Source: Candidatus Marinacidobacterales bacterium | GTDB lineage: Bacteria; Acidobacteriota; Vicinamibacteria; Marinacidobacterales; DATDRI01 | Direction of reading: 5' to 3' | Length of the DNA: 64,000 nucleotides | Assembly (NCBI GenBank): GCA_965222425.1 | Contig: CBDCTW010000005.1 | Location: 122,247 to 186,246, forward strand | In this document: positions 7,150 through 55,008 of the stretch, piece by piece | How the letters are laid out: each line of letters starts with the position of its first letter | Numbering within the stretch: position 1 is the stretch's first letter | Made by a program: the position numbers and the translations under genes | Notes under the pieces: generated by a model | What the model was told of the DNA's origin: nothing | What the model saw: only the letters and a program-made list of their open reading frames with translations | The model's database searches: none

Positions 7150-7988
7150 ATGACGTACCGACCGAGCGGTTGTGGAATCGGTCTCCGCAAAGAGCATTAC
7201 GATTTCGTCCTTTCCGAGCGACCGTCGATACCTTGGTTCGAGGTCATCTCCTAGAATTTTATGGGAGCGGGTGGACGTCCGCGACATATATTCTCGAGCG
7301 AGTGCGGCGTGACCGTCCGATGGCCATTCACGGCGTTTCTCTTTCGATCGGTACGGCGTCGCCGCCCGATCCCGATTACTTGAAACACCTCAAGGAGCTC
7401 GTCGGCTGGCTCGAGCCGGGCTTGGTGTCCGATCACCTTTGTTGGACCGGTATCGGTGGTCACAACAGTCACGACCTGCTGCCGCTTCCGTTCACCGCCG
7501 AAGCGGTTCGGAACGTTGCCAGGAACATTCGCGTGGTTCAAGAGACGCTAGGACGCCGGATACTCCTCGAGCACATCTCCACCTACATCGAGTTCAATCA
7601 TTCGCAAATGAGTGAGTGGGAGTTCACTCGCGCGGTGCTGGAAGCGGCCGACTGCCATCTCTTACTCGACGTGAACAACATCTACGTGAACGCGCACAAT
7701 CACGGGATCGATCCCCACCTTTACCTCGAGGGTATTCCGGACGACCGTATCCGCCAGTTTCACCTCGCCGGACACGAAGACCATGGAGATTTCGTCATCG
7801 ACACGCATGACCATCCGGCCTGCGACGAAGTTTGGGCGCTGTACCGAAAAGCAGTGGCCCGTTTCGGCCCTCAACCGACGCTCATCGAGCGCGACGCGCA
7901 TATCCCCGAGTTCCAGATGTTGCAACGAGAAGCCCAGCAGGCGCAGCTCATATTGGAGACGACCCGTGCCGTTCCCGCCATCATCTGA
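7150..7988 (+). pseudogene. DUF692-family multinuclear non-heme iron oxidase (MNIO; BufB/MbnB-like), disrupted
   Basis: From ATG 7150: MTYRPSGCGIGLRKEHYDFVLSERPSIPWFEVIS-TAG(7252-7254)-NFMGAGGRPRHI. A -1/+2 shift at about 7288-7292 then leads into LERVRRDRPMAIHGVSLSIG...DHLCW...LLEH...HLAGHED...IERD. The first ~70 residues of the ORF-track 308-aa ORF (7062..) are out of frame. Confidence 0.75.
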
Positions 7989-8808
7989 TAGCCCTCCTCT
8001 AGAAACTCTCCAGGCCGCGATGCTCGGCGAGCTAACGGGCGAGCAGACGTTTGGACCCCAGGCCCGCGCTCGCCACATCTGCAAACCTCCGCAGGGCACG
8101 GTGGAGAGCCGCTGGCACATCTATGCGTCCGGATATCTCGCCGGCATCGTCGAAGCCTTGGAGCACGACTACCCCGCGGTGAAGCGGGTAGTGGGAAGCG
8201 GTCACTTCGAGGCCCTGACCGAACGGTACTTCACCGCTCATTCACCACGGTCTTTCGATCTTCGGCACGCGGGAGACCGTCTTGCTCTTTTCTTAGAGCA
8301 AGATCCGTTGACCGAGAAGCTCCCTTTCCTACCAGATCTCGCCAAGCTCGAGCGGCTGCTTTCGGAGGCGTTCGTCGCGAAGGATCCGAAGCCTCTCCTC
8401 TGGAGCGAGCCCCAGGCGATGGCGCCAGAAGCGGTGTCCGATCTGCCGCTGGTATTGAACCCGGGGACGGCGGTCATTCGATCGGCTTGGCCGATCATCG
8501 ATATTCGCAATCTGAAGGACGAGAGCGATGAGAAGGTTTCCCTTACGGTCGAGGAATGTCCATCGATCGTCCTCGTTTATCGCTATGAGTTGCAAGCCCG
8601 CTGCCGGACCCTCGATGAAGAGGACGCCCGATTCATCGAGGTAGCGGCCGAGGGCGCGATCCTGGCGGAGATCCAAACCGCCCCCTTGAAGAACGACGAG
8701 GACGACGACAACCTCGTCACCGTCCAGAAACTCCTGGAGTGCTTTTGTCGACTGGTTGACGAAGGCCTTTTCTTGAAAGCCGGGAGGTCGCATGGTGCGG
8801 CCTTCTAA
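7966..8808 (+). CDS. DUF2063-family protein (BufC-like MNIO partner)
   Basis: In-frame GTG at 7966 with GGAG upstream, overlapping the MNIO stop. The body ...RWHIYASGYLAGIVEALEHDYPAVKRVVGSGHFEALTERYF... matches the DUF2063 N-terminal domain pattern. Sits directly downstream of DUF692, as in known MNIO operons. Confidence 0.65.
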   Translation: MPFPPSSDSPPLETLQAAMLGELTGEQTFGPQARARHICKPPQGTVESRWHIYASGYLAGIVEALEHDYPAVKRVVGSGHFEALTERYFTAHSPRSFDLRHAGDRLALFLEQDPLTEKLPFLPDLAKLERLLSEAFVAKDPKPLLWSEPQAMAPEAVSDLPLVLNPGTAVIRSAWPIIDIRNLKDESDEKVSLTVEECPSIVLVYRYELQARCRTLDEEDARFIEVAAEGAILAEIQTAPLKNDEDDDNLVTVQKLLECFCRLVDEGLFLKAGRSHGAAF

Positions 8809-9103
8809 CTCGTGGAGGATTCAACTGAAGAAGCCCAGTCCAAGATCACTTCTGGTTGCCTCTCTGGCCGGTGTTCTCGCCGTGCCGTTGGCGATGGCAA
8901 CCTTCGGCGGCACTACCGCTGCCCATGAGATTGAGGAAGTCCTTTGTTACGGCGTGAACAAATGTAAGGCTACCGGCGACTGCGGTGGCAAGGGACACTC
9001 CTGCGCCAATCAAAATGGCTGCAAGCGTCAAGAGTACCTTGACATGGACAAGGAGCTCTGCCTGAAGATAGACGGTGGACGCCTGACTTCGGGAGCAGAG
9101 TAG
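8792..9103 (+). CDS. Secreted Cys-rich RiPP precursor, bufferin (BufA / DUF2282-like) type
   Basis: GGGAGG then ATG. Sec signal ...SLLVASLAGVLAVPLAMA, then a core with six Cys: LCYGVNKCKATGDCGGKGHSCANQNGCKRQEYLDMDKELCLKIDGG. It overlaps the DUF2063 stop. Confidence 0.65.
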   Translation: MVRPSNSWRIQLKKPSPRSLLVASLAGVLAVPLAMATFGGTTAAHEIEEVLCYGVNKCKATGDCGGKGHSCANQNGCKRQEYLDMDKELCLKIDGGRLTSGAE

Positions 9104-9129
9104 GCTCAAGTACAAACTCCAAAGGAAGA

Positions 9130-9159
9130 GGCCGGCGAGGCCATAATTCCTCGCCGGTC
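9130..9159 (+). terminator. Strong stem-loop immediately after the precursor gene
   Basis: GGCCGGCGAGG-ccataatt-CCTCGCCGGTC: 9 contiguous GC-rich base pairs with an 8-nt loop. No clear U-tract follows, so it may be an attenuator or stabiliser rather than a full terminator. Confidence 0.45.
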
Positions 9160-9177
9160 TGTCCATACAAAGGATAG

Positions 9178-9786
9178 ATGATGCAGAGAATGAATGCCAA
9201 ATACGTCGTGCCGGCAGCCCTTGTCGCGAGTCTGATCATAGGCGCCGCGATTGCACAGGGCGGGTCGCTGAAGATCGATGCAGAACACTCCTCCGTCACC
9301 TTTCAGGTGACGCATCTCATGTTCACGAAAGTCGACGGTTAGTTTCGCGAGTTCGAGGGGACTTTCGACCTCGATGAAGACACCAACACGATCTCGAATG
9401 TCGTGGTGACGATCCAGACTGCCAGCGTCGATACCAACGTCGAGGCAAGAGACAAGGACTTGCGCAGCAAGCGCTTTTTCAACGTGGAGAAGTACCCTAC
9501 CCTCACCTTCAAGAGCACCGCTCCTGCCAAACTGAACGGCAAGAAGGGGAAGATGAAAGGCACCCTAACCATGCATGGTGTGGAGAAAGAAGCGGTTCTG
9601 GATGCCGAGCTTCTCGGAAAAGGCAAGGATCCCTGGGGCAATTTGAAGTATGGATTCCAAGCTACCACCGTTATCAACCGGAAGGACTTCGGTATGACGT
9701 GGAACGAGGCCCTCGAAGCCGGTGGAATCTTGGTTGGCGAAGAAGTGACGGTGAGGATCAATCTCGAGGCCGCGCCCGAATCCTGA
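9178..9786 (+). pseudogene. YceI-family periplasmic protein with one in-frame amber codon
   Basis: MMQRMNAKYVVPAALVASLIIGAAIAQG signal, then ...SLKIDAEHSSVTFQVTHLMFTKVDG-TAG(9340-9342)-FREFEGTFDLDED...VDTNVEARDKDLRS...FFNVEKYPTLTF. Otherwise a single uninterrupted frame to 9786. Confidence 0.75.
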
Positions 9787-9838
9787 GGACCGGGTGTCCA
9801 CTTGACCGAGGGTGTGCCTCCCGGTGGAGTTCGGGAGT

Positions 9839-9882
9839 GGCGCCTGGCTAGGTACCTCGAGGCAACCCCATATTTTGGCGCC
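9839..9882 (-). repeat. Single copy of the GGCGYC-AAAATA intergenic repeat family
   Basis: Reverse complement reads GGCGCC-AAAATATGGGGTTGCCTCGAGGTACCTAGCCA-GGCGCC. It has the same loop motifs (AAAATA, TTGC, CCTAGCCAGGCG) as the units at 29.8 kb. Confidence 0.55.
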
Positions 9883-9924
9883 AATCGCGAGGTGCAAGGC
9901 ACACCTTTTGTTTTTGGCCTTACA

Positions 9925-11042
9925 ATGTGCCCGATGCCGCGCTCGCTCCGCTACGTACTCTCCATCTTAGTAATCCTTCTGGTCGTCTTCTTCCTCATCG
10001 ATCTAGAACCCACTCCCCGATACCCACCTCCCGCGGTGGAGCCGGGTCCAGCGGCGATTCGAATTCACCGCGAGGCCATCGTGATCGACCTTCATGTGGA
10101 CTCCCTCCTCTGGCCACGTGATCTCGACCTCCCACCCTCTGGTGGACACGTGGATTTTTCGCGCATGCGGAAGGGGGCTTGGACGCTGCTGCTTTCACCC
10201 ACGCCACCCACTTTTTCGGCATGGCGGAGCTCAAGGCCTTCCATGATTTCTGGCCACCCGCGACTTGGATCTCTCCTTGGGAGCGGCTTCAATATCAGCT
10301 CGCACGCATGCGGGATTTCGTCGCTCAATCGGATGGCCGCGTGCGGGAGGTCGAGACCGCCGCGGCCATTCTGGAAAACCATCGACGAGGCGTTCTCTCA
10401 GTCTTTCACGGCATTGAAGGCGCCCATGCTCTGGGCACTGACCTCTCGCGAGTCGAGGACGTGAAACGCCAAGGCGTGCTCTTCATCGGGCCGGTGCACT
10501 TGGCCGACAATGAGTACGGTGGGAGCTCCCAGGGCTCGAACCAGGGGCTCACCGATCGGGGTCGGCAATTGATTCGCGAGATGAATCGGCACCGCATCCT
10601 GGTCGATCTCTCGCATGCCGGTCCGAAGAGTTTCGAACAATCACTCGCACTTACCACTTTGCCTCCCCTCGTCAGTCACGCCGGCGCGCGCGCGGTCCAC
10701 GGTACGCCGCGGAACCTCAGCGATGATCAGATCCGTGCGATAGCCGCCAGGAACGGAGTGATCGGCGTCATGCTGGCCCCACCGGCCACGGAGCAATCGG
10801 ATCTACTCGAAGTGATGGCTCACTTCCGGCATATGGTCTCCGTTGGAGGAGAGGATGTAGTGGCGCTTGGAAGTGACTTCGATGGTTTCGTGCAAACACC
10901 AATCGATGCCACCGGGCTTCCGCAGCTGACCCAGCTCATGCTCGATGCCGCGTGGAGCGAAGAAAGAATCCGCAAGATCTTGGGGGAAAACGTCCTTCGT
11001 GTGCTCGAAGAGCGGGTACACAAAGGGGTATCCAATCATTGA
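9925..11042 (+). pseudogene. Membrane dipeptidase (peptidase M19 family), frameshifted in a G-run
   Basis: The N-terminal TM anchor plus IHREAIVIDLHVDSL...GGHVDFSRMRKG (frame of ORF 9802..) continues as GLDAAAFTHATHFF...FHGIEGAHAL...ILVDLSHAG...GSDFDG (ORF 10179..11042). This requires a 1-nt shift at aaggggg, about 10171-10178. Confidence 0.75.
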
Positions 11043-30649: not shown

Positions 30650-31334
30650 GAATTCCGGGTCTACGCGGATTCGTGTGGGTAAGTCCTGACGGAAAACAGT
30701 GTAACTCATTGTGTGGGAAAGGTATCCAGACTTCATCAGGTGCTGAAAAGTGGTCCATTTTTCGGATAGGCTAACCGAGTGAAAAATTCCCAGTCGATCC
30801 GCTCGCTGTTTGCGCTGCCAGGTTTCGTGGCTGGTGCCGGATTGAAGGGTGTATTCGATGACCGATACGCCCACGTCATCCAGCTCAAGAGGCGAAAAAA
30901 ACAGCTGTTTGCTCTTACTGTGGGCAACGGTGCCGGGGACGCTATGACAAGCAAGTGTGCCGGGTCCGCGACCTGTCGTTGGCAGGCTGGCGGATCTCTC
31001 TGGAATACGAGCGTTGGCGCGTCAACTGTCCTGGGTGCGGCGGTTTGCATGTAGAACACCTGGACTGGCTGGCGAACAACTCGCGCTACACCTAGCGTTT
31101 TGCGACGCATGTGGGCAAGCTGTGCCGGGATATGCCGGACAAGGCGGTGGCCGAGATGGAACGTCTGCGCCTCCTAGTTGAAGGGGTCAACAACAAAATC
31201 CGTGTGCTGCAACGACGCGCCTACGGCTATCGCGACGAGGAATATCTCAAGCTGAAGATCGTGGCGGCATTCCTTCCGCCATTACCCAGAAATGCCGTCT
31301 TCAACCCACACGAATCCGCGTAGACCCAGAATTC
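30650..31334 (+). mobile_element. Internally deleted, inactivated ISL3-family element (685 bp, MITE-like)
   Basis: 31-bp terminal inverted repeats GAATTC(C/T)GGGTCTACGCGGATTCGTGTGGGT at 30650-30680 and 31304-31334. The transposase N-terminus (...AVCSYCGQRCRGRYDKQVCRVRDLSLAG...RVNCPGCGGLHVEHLDWL...RYT-TAG-RFATHVGKLC...) is joined directly to the extreme C-terminus (EGVNNKIRVLQRRAYGYRDEEYLKLKIV). A frameshift lies in an A7 run at about 30893. No target duplication was seen. Confidence 0.75.
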
Positions 31335-47267: not shown

Positions 47268-47378
47268 GACTTATCCAGAGTGGCAGAGGGATCGGGCCCT
47301 TGGATGCCACAGCAACCGGCGTAGCACGGTGCTAAATCCCGCGGGTGGTCCCCGGTGGGTCGACCTGGCAGATAAGAC
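47268..47378 (+). promoter_or_regulatory. SAM-I (S-box) riboswitch aptamer
   Basis: CTTATCCAGAGTGGCAGAGGGATCGGGCCCTTGGATGCCACAGCAACCGGCGTAGCACGGTGCTAAATCCCGCGGG...GGCAGATAAG. This matches the S-box consensus blocks: P1 CUUAUC/GAUAAG, AGAG-GG-GAGGGA, GGCCC, GCAACC, GGUGCUAAAUCC. Confidence 0.85.
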
Positions 47379-47412: not shown

Positions 47413-47523
47413 TTCTCCCGGCCTAACTGACGGGCTAGAAGCCCCAAAACACGAGGGGTAGTCCATCAAAGGAGGGGGGTGGTTTCGCCTCAGCCCGGCG
47501 CGACCTCCGGTAAAAGGAATATT

Positions 47524-51324: not shown

Positions 51325-51716
51325 AATTTCGGGATGGCATAGGTGCCGCGGCCCACGGCGATCACTGCACCGCTCAAATCGCGAACTTCGACGTCGGCGA
51401 CACCGATGGTCCGACCCACCTTGACGGTGCGGCCGATGGCGACGAGATCCCCCTTACGGGCCGGGCGGAGATAATCGACGCGAAGATCGATGGTCGGGAC
51501 ATTGCCCTTGGCCTTGGTGGTGATCGCGTAATCGCCGGCGATGTCGATGAGGGCGCTGACAACGCCTCCGTGCAACCAATCGGAGCCGTCTTGTCTCAGA
51601 AATTCATCACGGAAGGGCAATCGAATTTCCACGAGGCCGTCCTCGCTACGAACCGTCTCTATCCCGAGAAACCGCTGGTAAGGAGAGTCGTCTATTCGGA
51701 TTTCGTTTTCATTCAT
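51321..51716 (-). CDS. PaaI-family (hotdog) thioesterase
   Basis: ...LHGGVVSALIDIAGD... and ...TIDLRVDYLRPA... motifs. 132 aa from the internal ATG 51716, which overlaps the upstream stop (ATGA). Confidence 0.8.
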   Translation of the reverse strand: MNENEIRIDDSPYQRFLGIETVRSEDGLVEIRLPFRDEFLRQDGSDWLHGGVVSALIDIAGDYAITTKAKGNVPTIDLRVDYLRPARKGDLVAIGRTVKVGRTIGVADVEVRDLSGAVIAVGRGTYAIPKF

Positions 51717-53254
51717 TCCAGACTGCTCACTCTCTCCTTCGCCATCACACGAAGGGCGGCGCGATCCAGTTTTCCGGTACCGCCTAGTGGGAGGCGCTCG
51801 AGAAAGAAAACGTGCCGCGGATGAGCGTAGGCCGCTCCGTTTTGGAGGAAGAACGCCTTGACGTCTTCTTCCGAAGTTTGTCCCGCGACCCGCGCCACGA
51901 CGAACGCCACCGGCACCGCTCCTTTCACCGCGTGTTGCACCGGGACAACACACGCGTCTCTTAGTTGAGGATGCTTCAGGAGCATGTCTTCGACCTCCTT
52001 CGGATAAACATTCTCGACGCCGACGTTGATCATGTCGTCTTTACGTCCCAGGAAATAGTAAAAGCCGTCCTCGTCTCGGCGCATCAGATCTCCGGTGAAG
52101 AGCCAGCCATCCCGGAATCTCTCGGCCGTTGCCTCCGGCCGCTTCCAGTAACCTTTGGCCAAGCCCGGGTTGCGTGTGACCAGCTCCCCAACTTCGTTAG
52201 GCCCCACTTCGGTCGACCCGTCTTCGGCCACTAGCTTCACATCGCATCCCGGAAAAGCCATCCCACAATTTCCTCGCTTTTTGAGTCCCCAACGCGAGTT
52301 CACGATCGGTACCGGCCCACCTCAGTTAGACCGTAGCTCTCCGCCATCGGCGCCCCAAAAACACGACCGAACTCTTCTAGAAGCTCTTCGGACACTTCGG
52401 CCGAGCCGAAACGGCGTAGCGGATGGAGCTCACGTCATGCTGAGCCAAGGCCTCTTTTTCCGCCAGGATCATTTTGTACATCGCTGGCACGCCGGTCAGG
52501 TAAGTCACTCGATGTCGCTCGATGGCCTTGATCACCTGCAGCGGATCGAAGCCGGCAAGATGACGAGTGAGCCGCCGGCGAGCAAGAAGGGCTTGACCAC
52601 TCCGATCGTCGCGTTCTTGTGATAGAGAGGAACGGAGATGAGGGCTCGCTCGCTGTGGTCGGCGTGAAATGCCTTGCGCAAGATGTCGGCATTCCAAATC
52701 TGGCCGCCGTGGGTGAAAAGGACACCCTTCGGCTTACCCGTCGAGCCGGACGTGTAGGGCTGCATGCAGATCTCGTCGGGGTCGGTACGTCGACGCTCGA
52801 GGCGGTCGGGCTGCGATTCGAGAAAATGGTCATAGGACAGGAATCCATCGCCTGCCGGAGCATCAATGATGATGTGCTTCAAGCTCGGAGCGTCCTTCGC
52901 GAGTAGCCGAGCGCGGTCCGCCATATCTCGATTGGCAATGAGAACCGACGCCTTCGAGTCGTGGAGAACATAGCTCAAGGCTTCATCGCTCATGCGAGTG
53001 TTGAGCGGCACGGGGACCGCCCCGAAGCGCATGGGTCCGAAAGTGGATTCCAGGAAGCGGTAATCGTTGCTGAACATCAGCGCCACTCGCTCGCCCTCGC
53101 CCACGCCGATCTCGCGAAGGGCGTTGGCCATGCGATTACATCGAGCTTCGAGGTCTTGGAATGAGAGGACAATGTCGTCCTGGAAGACGGTGTGCTCGTC
53201 GGGGGTGAGCCGTAACGGGGCGTCGGAGATGTGTCCCAGATTATCCGGGAGCAT
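51713..53254 (-). pseudogene. AMP-dependent acyl-CoA synthetase with at least three frameshifts
   Basis: All expected blocks are present but in four frame segments. Segment 1: MLPDN...YTSGSTGKPKGVLFTHGG...LLAGGSLVILP. Segment 2: FDPLQVIKAIERHRVTYLTGVPAMYKMIL...IRYAVS. Segment 3: SAEVSEELLEEFGRVFGAPMAESYGLTEVG. Segment 4: PVPIVNSRWG...FTGDLMRRDEDGFYYFLGRKDDMINVGVENVYPKEVE...GKLDR. Shifts lie at about 52550, 52400 and 52310. Confidence 0.75.
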
Positions 53255-54320
53255 CTCCACTCTCCGGTTGGATGACAACTTTTCCGAAGACCTCGCGTTT
53301 CTCGAGAGCGATCTCTCCTTCGGCGGTGCGCTCCAGGGGCAACGCCCGATCCACAACCGGGCGGAGCTTGCCTTCGAACGCCAAGGCGACGACTTCTTCG
53401 AGCTCCTCATGAGTCCAACCGTTACTGCCCAGTAGTTTCTGCTCGCGGCGGAATAGATAACGGATGTCGGTAGGGCCGATCGGACCGGAGGTGGCACCAC
53501 AGGTCACCAGACGCCCTCCTTTGCCGAGCGCCCGAATACTGCGTTCCCAAGTGACAGCACCGACCGACTCGATCACAACCTCCACGCCACGTTTGCCGGT
53601 GAGTCGCCGGACAGTCTTGTCCCATTCCTCATTCTCGACATAATTAACGACGTCGTCAGCCCCGAACTCCCTCGCACGAGCCAACTTTTCCTCGGTGGAC
53701 GCGGTGGCGATGACCCGAGCGTTCAGGAGCTTCGCGATTTGTATCGCGGCCACCGCGACGCCACCTCCGGCGCCAAGCACTAACACCACTTCCCCAGGCT
53801 TCACTCGCCCATGGGTCACCACCATACGCCAGGCGGTCCCGTAGGTAACCGGCAAGCACGCGGCGTCGTCGAACGAATAACCCCCCGAAATCGGAATCGC
53901 TTGGTTGGCGGGGCAAGTCACATACTCCGCGAGTCCCCCGGGATCGAGCTCACCCAACATATGTGGCCGCAGGCACCGAGGTGTCTGACCCTCGAGGCAG
54001 TACTCGCACGTGCCGCATCCCCAGGTGGGATTCAGAAGCACGCGATCCCCCACCGCGGGTCGCCTGACCCCTTCTCCGACTGAGTCGACCACACCGGCAA
54101 TATCACCACCGGTAATGTGAGGCAGGGGTGTCGGCTCACCGGGCATCCCTTCGCGAACGAAGATGTCCAGAAAGTTTAGAGCACACGCCTTGATCTTGAC
54201 CCGGATCTCACCCAGCCCGGCCTTCGGTCGCGGCCACGCGGCCTCGAGCTTGAGCACCTCCGGGCCGCCGTGCTCATGGATCACGACCGCCCTCATGGTG
54301 TCGACTTCGGATACAGGCAT
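53241..54320 (-). CDS. Zinc-binding alcohol dehydrogenase / MDR-family oxidoreductase
   Basis: ...GCGTCEYCLEGQTPRC (structural Zn lobe), VLVLGAGGGVAVAAIQIA (Rossmann). Probable start MRAVVIHEHGG at about 54296. Confidence 0.85.
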   Translation of the reverse strand: MPVSEVDTMRAVVIHEHGGPEVLKLEAAWPRPKAGLGEIRVKIKACALNFLDIFVREGMPGEPTPLPHITGGDIAGVVDSVGEGVRRPAVGDRVLLNPTWGCGTCEYCLEGQTPRCLRPHMLGELDPGGLAEYVTCPANQAIPISGGYSFDDAACLPVTYGTAWRMVVTHGRVKPGEVVLVLGAGGGVAVAAIQIAKLLNARVIATASTEEKLARAREFGADDVVNYVENEEWDKTVRRLTGKRGVEVVIESVGAVTWERSIRALGKGGRLVTCGATSGPIGPTDIRYLFRREQKLLGSNGWTHEELEEVVALAFEGKLRPVVDRALPLERTAEGEIALEKREVFGKVVIQPESGDAPG

Positions 54321-54408
54321 CGAACGCTAAGAATAGTTCAAAGCCCTTCTCGAAAACAAAGTGCCCCAATCCACGAAAGAAAGGGTGGTATAACCTACTC
54401 CCACTTCA

Positions 54409-55008
54409 ATGGACAAACGTAAACATAGCAACGAGCCCTACGCGATTGCCGAGGCCATTTCGCCAGCCGAGCTCGAGGCGGAAATCAAAGAGCTCGAGCG
54501 GCTAGGCAAGTCGCCGTGGTTGGCGCGACTCCCGGGCTACTTGCGGCTCGGGGGCCCGGGTTTCATGGATGCCGCGCTCACTCTCGGCGCAGGAACGCTG
54601 ACCGCTGCGATGCTCTCGGGCGCCACCTTCGGATACAAGACGATGTAGCTCCTCTGGGTTTCCATGGGAATGGGCTGCTTCATGATGGCCGCGAGCGCGC
54701 GCTTTACCACCCGCGGGTTTCGCGTCATCGCCCTCCAGAACGAGCATCACGGCTGGATCATCGGCTCCTTGATGACCGCGCTCGTCGGTACTTCCGCGGT
54801 CGCGATTATTTTCAATTATGGCCAGTACAGCTTGGGCACTCATCTCATCGAATCGCTGACGCCATTGATGGGATTCGAGTTTCCTCGACAATACAACTGG
54901 GTGCTCTATATGGCGCTCACCAGTTGTTTGACGTTGAGCTATGGACGGGGAAAACATGGCATCCGGTTGGTCGAGAACTTCATGAAGCTCAGCATCCCGA
55001 AGTCGTAA
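54409..55008 (+). pseudogene. Nramp-superfamily-like metal transporter, amber-interrupted and C-terminally truncated
   Basis: ...LRLGGPGFMDAALTLGAGTLTAAMLSGATFGYKTM-TAG(54646-54648)-LLWVSMGMGCFMMAAS... in one frame. It ends after about 5 helices (about 200 codons), and no continuation appears in any frame. Confidence 0.55.

Follow-up and report, generated by a model that had tools for sequence, protein, structure and literature searches.

A Buf2-type bufferin cluster with an adjoining yceI gene, very probably dead in a Candidatus Marinacidobacterales population

Bufferins, the largest known group of ribosomally synthesised peptides with post-translational modifications (RiPPs) that are modified by multinuclear non-heme iron oxidases (MNIOs), are a widespread copper defence. 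The Buf2 type (BUF_6/12Cys), modelled on Caulobacter buf2ABC, has six conserved cysteines and a Sec signal peptide but no DoxX (PMC11626156, PMC12452194), and a mass change of −18 Da has been reported for Caulobacter Buf2 (PMC11626156). Here we analysed a locus in a 64-kb stretch of contig CBDCTW010000005.1 from Candidatus Marinacidobacterales (hereafter the window, meaning the whole stretch, whose positions serve as coordinates; the GC content of the genome is ~59%). From its sequence, the locus is assigned as a Buf2-type bufferin biosynthetic cluster, bufB, bufC, bufA2 and yceI, which in the window's population is very probably dead and decaying, through genuine mutations that are later than the split from a sister lineage. 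The family is already known and this copy has decayed; the part that may be new is the conserved partnership with YceI and the decay of yceI together with bufB and bufA2.

The cluster lies on the plus strand and comprises genes for an MNIO (7150-7988), for a DUF2063/HvfC protein (8020-8808) and for a six-cysteine precursor with a signal peptide (to 9103), followed by a YceI gene. Instead of a working cluster, we found lesions in bufB (an amber codon, a +2 frameshift and N141H), bufA2 (a lost ATG and G70E) and yceI (an amber codon), and because the BufB enzyme cannot be made in the window, the cluster is considered non-functional. The original prediction had placed the breaks of the MNIO gene exactly, but had missed N141H, the lost precursor start, G70E and the yceI amber. 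The genes and lesions are as follows.

7150..7988, plus strand: bufB pseudogene (MNIO of the BufB type; 278 codons after repair; profile matches)
7252..7254, plus strand: amber codon replacing Glu35 of the MNIO (GAG to TAG; Glu or Asp in 79/79 homologues)
7286..7289, plus strand: 2-bp AT insertion in bufB, frameshift after codon 46 (alignment to relatives)
7572..7574, plus strand: MNIO Asn141 to His, LLEN motif (Asn in 78/78 homologues)
8020..8808, plus strand: bufC (open reading frame intact; alternative GTG start at 7966)
8792..9103, plus strand: 103-codon open reading frame (upstream ATG, in frame only in the window and the clade of the sister contig L003)
8825..9103, plus strand: bufA2, ancestral 92-codon extent (Sec-type signal peptide and six-cysteine core)
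8825..8827, plus strand: lost canonical bufA2 start (ATG to CTG; codon and protein alignment)
9032..9034, plus strand: precursor G70E (CKRQ-G-YLDM; Gly in 79/81 homologues, change on the window branch)
9178..9786, plus strand: yceI pseudogene (periplasmic, YceI/lipocalin-like; Pfam PF04264 with the stop masked)
9340..9342, plus strand: yceI amber codon (CAG to TAG; comparison with relatives)

In the bufB gene, the frame opened by ATG 7150 reads MTYRPSGCGIGLRKEHYDFVLSERPSIPWFEVIS, meets TAG at 7252-7254 and goes on with NFMGAGGRPRH; reading then resumes in the −1/+2 frame from 7290 (ILERVRRDRPMAIHGVSLSIG ... IERD ...) and ends at TGA 7986-7988. The conserved MNIO blocks quoted in the original prediction (GIGLR-EHY, WFEVIS-x-NF, HGVSLSIG, DHLCW, LLEH, HLAGH and IERD) were all found, and the LLEH of the window is the derived form of an invariant LLEN. 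Protein families were scored by profile searches against the Pfam and NCBIfam cut-offs, using for the MNIO a repaired 278-a.a. translation in which TAG was read as Glu and two bases were removed. For this translation, Pfam PF05114 gave 356 bits, NCBIfam NF050167 MNIO_BufB gave 364.9 bits, above the equivalog cut-off of 310, and NCBIfam HvfB gave 266.6 bits, under the cut-off of 360; the nearest solved structure was PDB 3BWW (DUF692; E = 1.3e-48). Since the gene as found is broken, the BufB match indicates ancestry only.

The reality of the lesions was evaluated by comparison with strain contigs and relatives. Two public contigs from different samples, L001 (ERZ26167216) and L002 (ERZ25068966), match the window at 99.40% and 99.87% identity across ~14 kb, with 64 and 17 substituted sites, respectively, which indicates separate assemblies of strains that are closely related. 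In the MNIO gene, the window, L001 and L002 share exactly the same TAG and extra AT; given this agreement with contigs of different origin, we regard the lesions as real rather than as random assembly errors. The intact ancestral state is kept in the sister contig L003 (96.5-98.3% identity), L096 (93.8%), L088 and L106 (~90%), L008 (89%) and L004/L005 (77%). Site by site, the amber position of bufB is TAG in L001 and L002 and GAG in L003, L004 and L005, and the two extra bases, which sit in an (AT)n tract (7285-7292) 35 nt past the TAG, are present as the identical insertion in L001 and L002 and absent from L003, L004, L005 and L096. A predicted replacement of the conserved Glu by TAG with a shift 35 nt later was thus borne out, the relatives having GAG and no insertion. 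In yceI, the amber site is TAG in L002, CAG in L003 and AAG in L004; L001 does not differ from the window there, and its yceI gene calls are split in the same way.

In addition, we scanned JGI metagenomes for the coding motif of WFEVIS-E-NF, allowing G or T at the lesion, and the lesion position was GAG in 31/31 matches; metagenome relatives at 94% and 90% identity also had no AT insertion. Changes were then polarised with L003 as the sister and L008 (the Candidatus Marinacidobacterales chromosome OZ245365.1) as the outgroup. N141H fell on the window branch, with L001 and L002 not differing from the window, and so did V223A of the MNIO, at a site occupied by Val or Ile in 77/77 homologues. Judged from these alignments, GAG to TAG, the +AT slip and CAG to TAG arose after the split from L003, which is ~97% identical. 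The locus had been described as either recently inactivated or mis-assembled; inactivation holds and mis-assembly does not, as the same lesions occur in two contigs from other samples and are absent from close relatives.

The precursor alignment consisted of the window sequence and 23 relatives. The window precursor matched NCBIfam NF050166 Cu_RiPP_BufA2 with E = 1.2e-14 and 54.2 bits (cut-off 60), and all 24 aligned members matched this model (best E = 1.7e-20). At E up to 1, none of the 24 gave a match to PF10048 (DUF2282/BufA1) in the current Pfam, and older-version precomputed PF10048 matches exist for many relatives. The CYG and HSC motifs of the window precursor would resemble those of DUF2282 peptides; with 24/24 matches to BufA2 and 0/24 to the current PF10048, the earlier proposal of a DUF2282-type precursor or a variant hybrid class was abandoned. 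The cysteines at 52, 58, 64, 71, 77 and 90 (103-a.a. numbering) are invariant or nearly so across the 24 homologues, and the signal peptide, by inspection, shows a basic n-region (KKPSPR), ~17 hydrophobic residues in a row (SLLVASLAGVLAVPLAM) and, for cleavage, the motif A-M-A, each of which is kept in homologues. AlphaFold2 modelling from the 24 sequences gave a mean predicted local distance difference test score of 51.5, too low for fold searching, and a PDB search with the precursor profile turned up no solved structure of a BufA2-like peptide.

The start of bufA2 is ATG after GGAGGA in L003, L008, L009 and L004 and CTG in the window; this column holds Met in all 23 other aligned homologues, 21 of which begin there. 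The upstream ATG, which in the window lies 33 nt before the canonical start, does not share its frame in L008, L009 and L004. The 103-codon frame is a by-product of the lost canonical start: it exists solely because this ATG, which lies within bufC, is by chance in frame in the window/L003 clade. The predicted 103-codon frame, with its ...AVPLAMA signal-like N-terminus and six cysteines, is therefore present, but its start at 8792 is not the ancestral one, which is at 8825. The bufA2 stop is TAG, at the alignment position where the closest homologues end. In the sister contig, an extra A in an A-run (L003:7670-7680, corresponding to window 9012) shortens the precursor to 83 a.a.; because the name of L003 marks it as a 2x contig and it carries many single-base indels relative to the window, this truncation is probably an error of that contig.

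The bufC product scored 58.1 bits against Pfam PF09836 (DUF2063/HvfC_N; cut-off 27.2) and 46.4 bits against NCBIfam HvfC, below the cut-off of 142, and the gene is called with 262 a.a. in L001 and L002. Both enzymes therefore fall inside the families claimed for them, the MNIO in PF05114 and its partner in DUF2063, and the BufB, DUF2063 and BufA2 profile matches bear out the claim of a bufferin-type MNIO RiPP locus in B-C-A order. The start of bufC may be ATG 8020 instead of GTG 7966, in which case the gene does not overlap the MNIO stop as had been predicted.

The yceI pseudogene, with its TAG masked, scored 163.6 bits against Pfam PF04264 over profile positions 2-150 of 150, and matched solved YceI proteins with E = 1e-32 to 1e-36 (E. 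coli YceI, 1Y0G, E = 4.6e-35). The prediction that the next gene is YceI was right about the neighbour but not about its being a mere neighbour, as yceI is a conserved cluster member that is itself broken. The spacer between bufA2 and yceI carries one further element.

9129..9160, plus strand: GC-rich hairpin of 12 bp between bufA2 and yceI (folding z-score; no U-tract)

Its folding z-score was −3.5 to −4.1, with no shuffled sequence folding equally well, and its arms, GGCCGGCGAGG and CCTCGCCGG, are identical in L008, L009 and L004. A terminator scan flagged it as terminator-like on the minus strand only. The hairpin is more likely an element for RNA stability or partial termination than a canonical terminator. 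A GC hairpin 3' of the precursor had been predicted, but it has 12 bp rather than 9 and begins 26 nt past the stop, not immediately after it.

Several points weigh against a dead Buf2 cluster in the window's population. The bufC frame is still intact, and the in-frame upstream ATG with its good Shine-Dalgarno sequence could still yield a precursor. The precursor score is just short of the curated BufA2 cut-off. Thiooxazole formation, copper binding and any role of YceI in the cluster are inferred by analogy. The reality of the lesions rests on agreement among assemblies rather than on reads, and the window contig elsewhere has error-like 1-nt losses in short homopolymers. On the window branch, the ratio of nonsynonymous to synonymous changes was 21:9 in bufBCA versus 19:17 in flanking genes, which is not significant (Fisher p = 0.21), and the sister branch trends alike; as this test of relaxed selection was not significant, we relied on the site-specific evidence.

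The error-like losses bear on one rival explanation, in which the organism has undamaged MNIO and YceI genes, the stops and the shift being errors of a low-coverage long-read assembly. The names of contigs L001-L003 end in 2x to 6x, which can be read as low coverage. The M19 dipeptidase gene (9814-11042) has GGGGG at 10163-10169 where L001, L002 and L003 have GGGGGG, which splits it into two frames; this loss at 10169, private to the window, probably reflects either an assembly error in the homopolymer or a slip of this contig's own. The acyl-CoA synthetase gene on the minus strand (51713-53260) has three frame switches within ~240 nt (near 52550, 52407 and 52315), each resembling a 1-nt loss in a short G/C run and requiring a 1-nt repair; the stitched product covers AMP-binding 8-384 of 384 and AMP-binding_C, and the stretch is either low-quality assembly or another pseudogene. 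The bufB and yceI lesions are of a different type: they consist of two substitutions and the gain of a dinucleotide rather than of slips in homopolymers, and are the same in the window and in two assemblies of different samples that differ mutually by single-nucleotide polymorphisms. Moreover, the sister contig, named in the same style, is intact in a nearly identical context, and lineage-specific replacements at invariant residues accompany the lesions. We therefore consider an artefact extremely unlikely. A functional operon, with a suppressor tRNA or codon reassignment giving TAG an amino acid and with the shift bypassed, would also account for the stops, since the three in-frame stops noticed in the window (7252, 9340 and 54646) are all TAG and a 64-kb view leaves room for a tRNA with a CUA anticodon elsewhere. 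However, the TAGs of the cluster replace Glu in one case and Gln in the other, the stop of bufA2 is itself a TAG aligned with the ends of its closest homologues, the invariant Asn is lost as well, and the 64-kb window contains no tRNA. No slippery heptamer occurs at the shift site CGACATATATTC, which originates from a simple gain of AT. As a single change turns GAG, CAG and other codons common in GC-rich genomes into TAG, finding TAG all three times is not improbable by chance. The lengths of the open frames obtained when each stop is taken as sense are uninformative at 59% GC. Recoding is thus hardly credible.

A remaining rival is partial function, with the precursor made from ATG 8792 acting as an unmodified cysteine-rich metal binder, or modified in trans by another MNIO/HvfC pair. 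The 103-codon frame is open, with GGGAGG 4 nt before its ATG, bufC is intact, and many bufferin precursor genes are unlinked to an MNIO gene (PMC12452194). Against this, the precursor has Glu for Gly at a near-invariant site, the window contains no second MNIO or BufA copy, the pattern scan gave one locus only from the nearest complete chromosome (OZ245365.1), and the co-transcribed yceI is broken too. Partial function is a doubtful alternative, and inactivation by genuine mutation remains the preferred reading of the locus.

We next consider the link between YceI and the cluster across phyla. A pattern scan with one genome per species gave 80 related loci, whose gene orders were determined by local tblastn. 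In 61 of them, YceI and the precursor are adjacent and on the same strand. The order is Y-A-B-C or a close variant in ~45 loci (Myxococcota, Omnitrophota, Planctomycetota, Binatia, Elusimicrobiota and Leptospira), and (MoaA-)B-C-A-Y or B-C-A in 15, mostly from Vicinamibacteria and other Acidobacteriota. Y-A-B-C is also the order in Deltaproteobacteria and others. In three Leptospira loci (L067, L069 and L073), YceI and A lie side by side on one strand with bufC and bufB inverted downstream (Y-A-C'-B'), which suggests that the former two make up a transcription unit of their own. The most distant loci, from Gammaproteobacteria, are A-B-C without YceI. Clustering of open reading frames over the 80 loci, which is noisy with spurious GC-rich frames, found nothing beyond B, C, A and YceI in more than 12 loci. 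MoaA lies upstream only in Marinacidobacterales-type loci, and because of this limited adjacency it was rejected as a cluster member and treated as a neighbour.

From these gene orders, B-C-A is the lineage norm in Vicinamibacteria, and YceI a conserved cluster member in the BufA2 subfamily of the window. The precursor-last order, noted as an oddity by the original prediction, is accordingly standard there. The missing DoxX, noted likewise, is normal for Buf2, as Caulobacter buf2ABC also lacks it (PMC11626156); no DoxX was present among the genes 3' of the window precursor (YceI, M19 dipeptidase and DUF2784) or in the gene tables of related contigs. Because YceI stays by the precursor through at least three rearrangements (Y-A-B-C, B-C-A-Y, and Y-A with inverted B-C), we lean slightly towards the periplasmic lipocalin YceI being a genuine fourth component of a large cross-phylum Buf2 subfamily. 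If so, the yceI amber beside the death of bufB and bufA2 would be the co-decay of one functional module. YceI may take the place in Buf2 clusters that DoxX has in Buf1; possible roles are those of a carrier or chaperone for the thiooxazole peptide, or of a quinone-linked redox partner. A literature search found no paper whose main text ties YceI to MNIO, DUF692 or bufferins. A single Legionella locus with a YceI gene is noted in a supplementary legend of a published bufferin survey, which took in unknown genes only if they were within 10 bp of a core gene; this rule could explain why YceI was overlooked.

The working of the intact ancestor can be proposed by analogy with Caulobacter Buf2 (PMC11626156). 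BufB and BufC would oxidise the four central cysteines (58, 64, 71 and 77 in the 103-a.a. numbering) to 5-thiooxazoles, with −4 Da for each. The precursor would be exported via Sec, its signal peptide being cut after A-M-A, and a disulphide would join Cys I and Cys VI (Cys52 and Cys90). The mature small protein would chelate excess copper and so buffer the periplasm, with YceI, a periplasmic barrel binding hydrophobic or isoprenoid ligands, as a conserved accessory.

Other observations were made in the related contigs and elsewhere in the window. L001 differs completely from the window upstream of 4556, where L001:1-5766 holds rve_3 transposase genes together with those for an N6_N4 methyltransferase and a glutamate symporter, which points to a strain-level rearrangement by mobile elements. 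In a Candidatus Marinacidobacterales metagenome-assembled genome that is 72% identical (CBDANW010000002.1; L014:4384-4620), the MNIO frame changes within ~10 codons of the window shift site. That shift (…NFMTDG | RPRHVLEQ…) has the opposite direction (+1) and a different sequence context, and is an independent lesion or an assembly error rather than a shared programmed shift. The third in-frame TAG (54646-54648; …FGYKTM*LLWVSMG…) lies in a hydrophobic, transporter-like frame on the plus strand (54394-55008), which is cut short by a TAA just ahead of a DinB-like gene; when translated through the TAG, 54394-55008 had no Pfam match. At 30862-31320 on the plus strand is a remnant of an ISL3-family transposase, with a zinc-finger/helix-turn-helix N-terminus fused to the last ~28 DDE residues and an in-frame stop. 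It lies within a 2-kb stretch (~29.8-31.7 kb) poor in good open reading frames, where a 50-a.a. STAS-like fragment also occurs. The sole Rfam match in the window was an S-adenosylmethionine riboswitch (RF00162, 71.5 bits) at 47268-47378 on the plus strand, upstream of an open reading frame starting at ~47431-47479.

A dead Buf2 copy adds little biochemistry. The locus serves as a worked example of how pseudogenisation can be told from long-read error, by means of independent strain-level assemblies and a sister lineage, and if YceI is a real accessory, it also offers a testable lead on the periplasmic handling of Buf2 peptides.

Among described systems, Caulobacter vibrioides buf2ABC (CCNA_02999-03001) resembles the window cluster in combining BufB, a DUF2063 BufC and a six-cysteine precursor with a Sec signal, without DoxX (PMC11626156). 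It differs in its A-B-C order, the window having B-C-A with YceI attached to the precursor, and in that the window copy is inactivated; unlike in Caulobacter, SigF/NrsF genes were not seen near the window cluster, whose flanks were viewed without a systematic search. Buf1/gig bufA1BCD would share with the window the enzyme pair, the conversion of cysteines to 5-thiooxazoles and a Sec-exported small copper-binding protein, as judged by analogy. The Buf1 precursor (DUF2282), however, has four cysteines and is accompanied by a DoxX gene, whereas the window precursor has six, no DoxX and no current PF10048 match. Haemophilus HvfABC/oxazolin-type clusters have an MNIO and an HvfC-like partner homologous to those of the window, but the window precursor is not of their EGKCG type and the window MNIO is under the HvfB cut-off. 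Finally, YceI/BcnA proteins (E. coli YceI 1Y0G, PA0423 and TT1927b) have, like the window product, a full-length YceI domain and a signal peptide. Unlike the solved YceI proteins, the window yceI carries an amber stop, and whereas published YceI/BcnA genes are usually linked to a cytochrome b561 gene (PMC9113575), that of the window is linked to a bufferin precursor.

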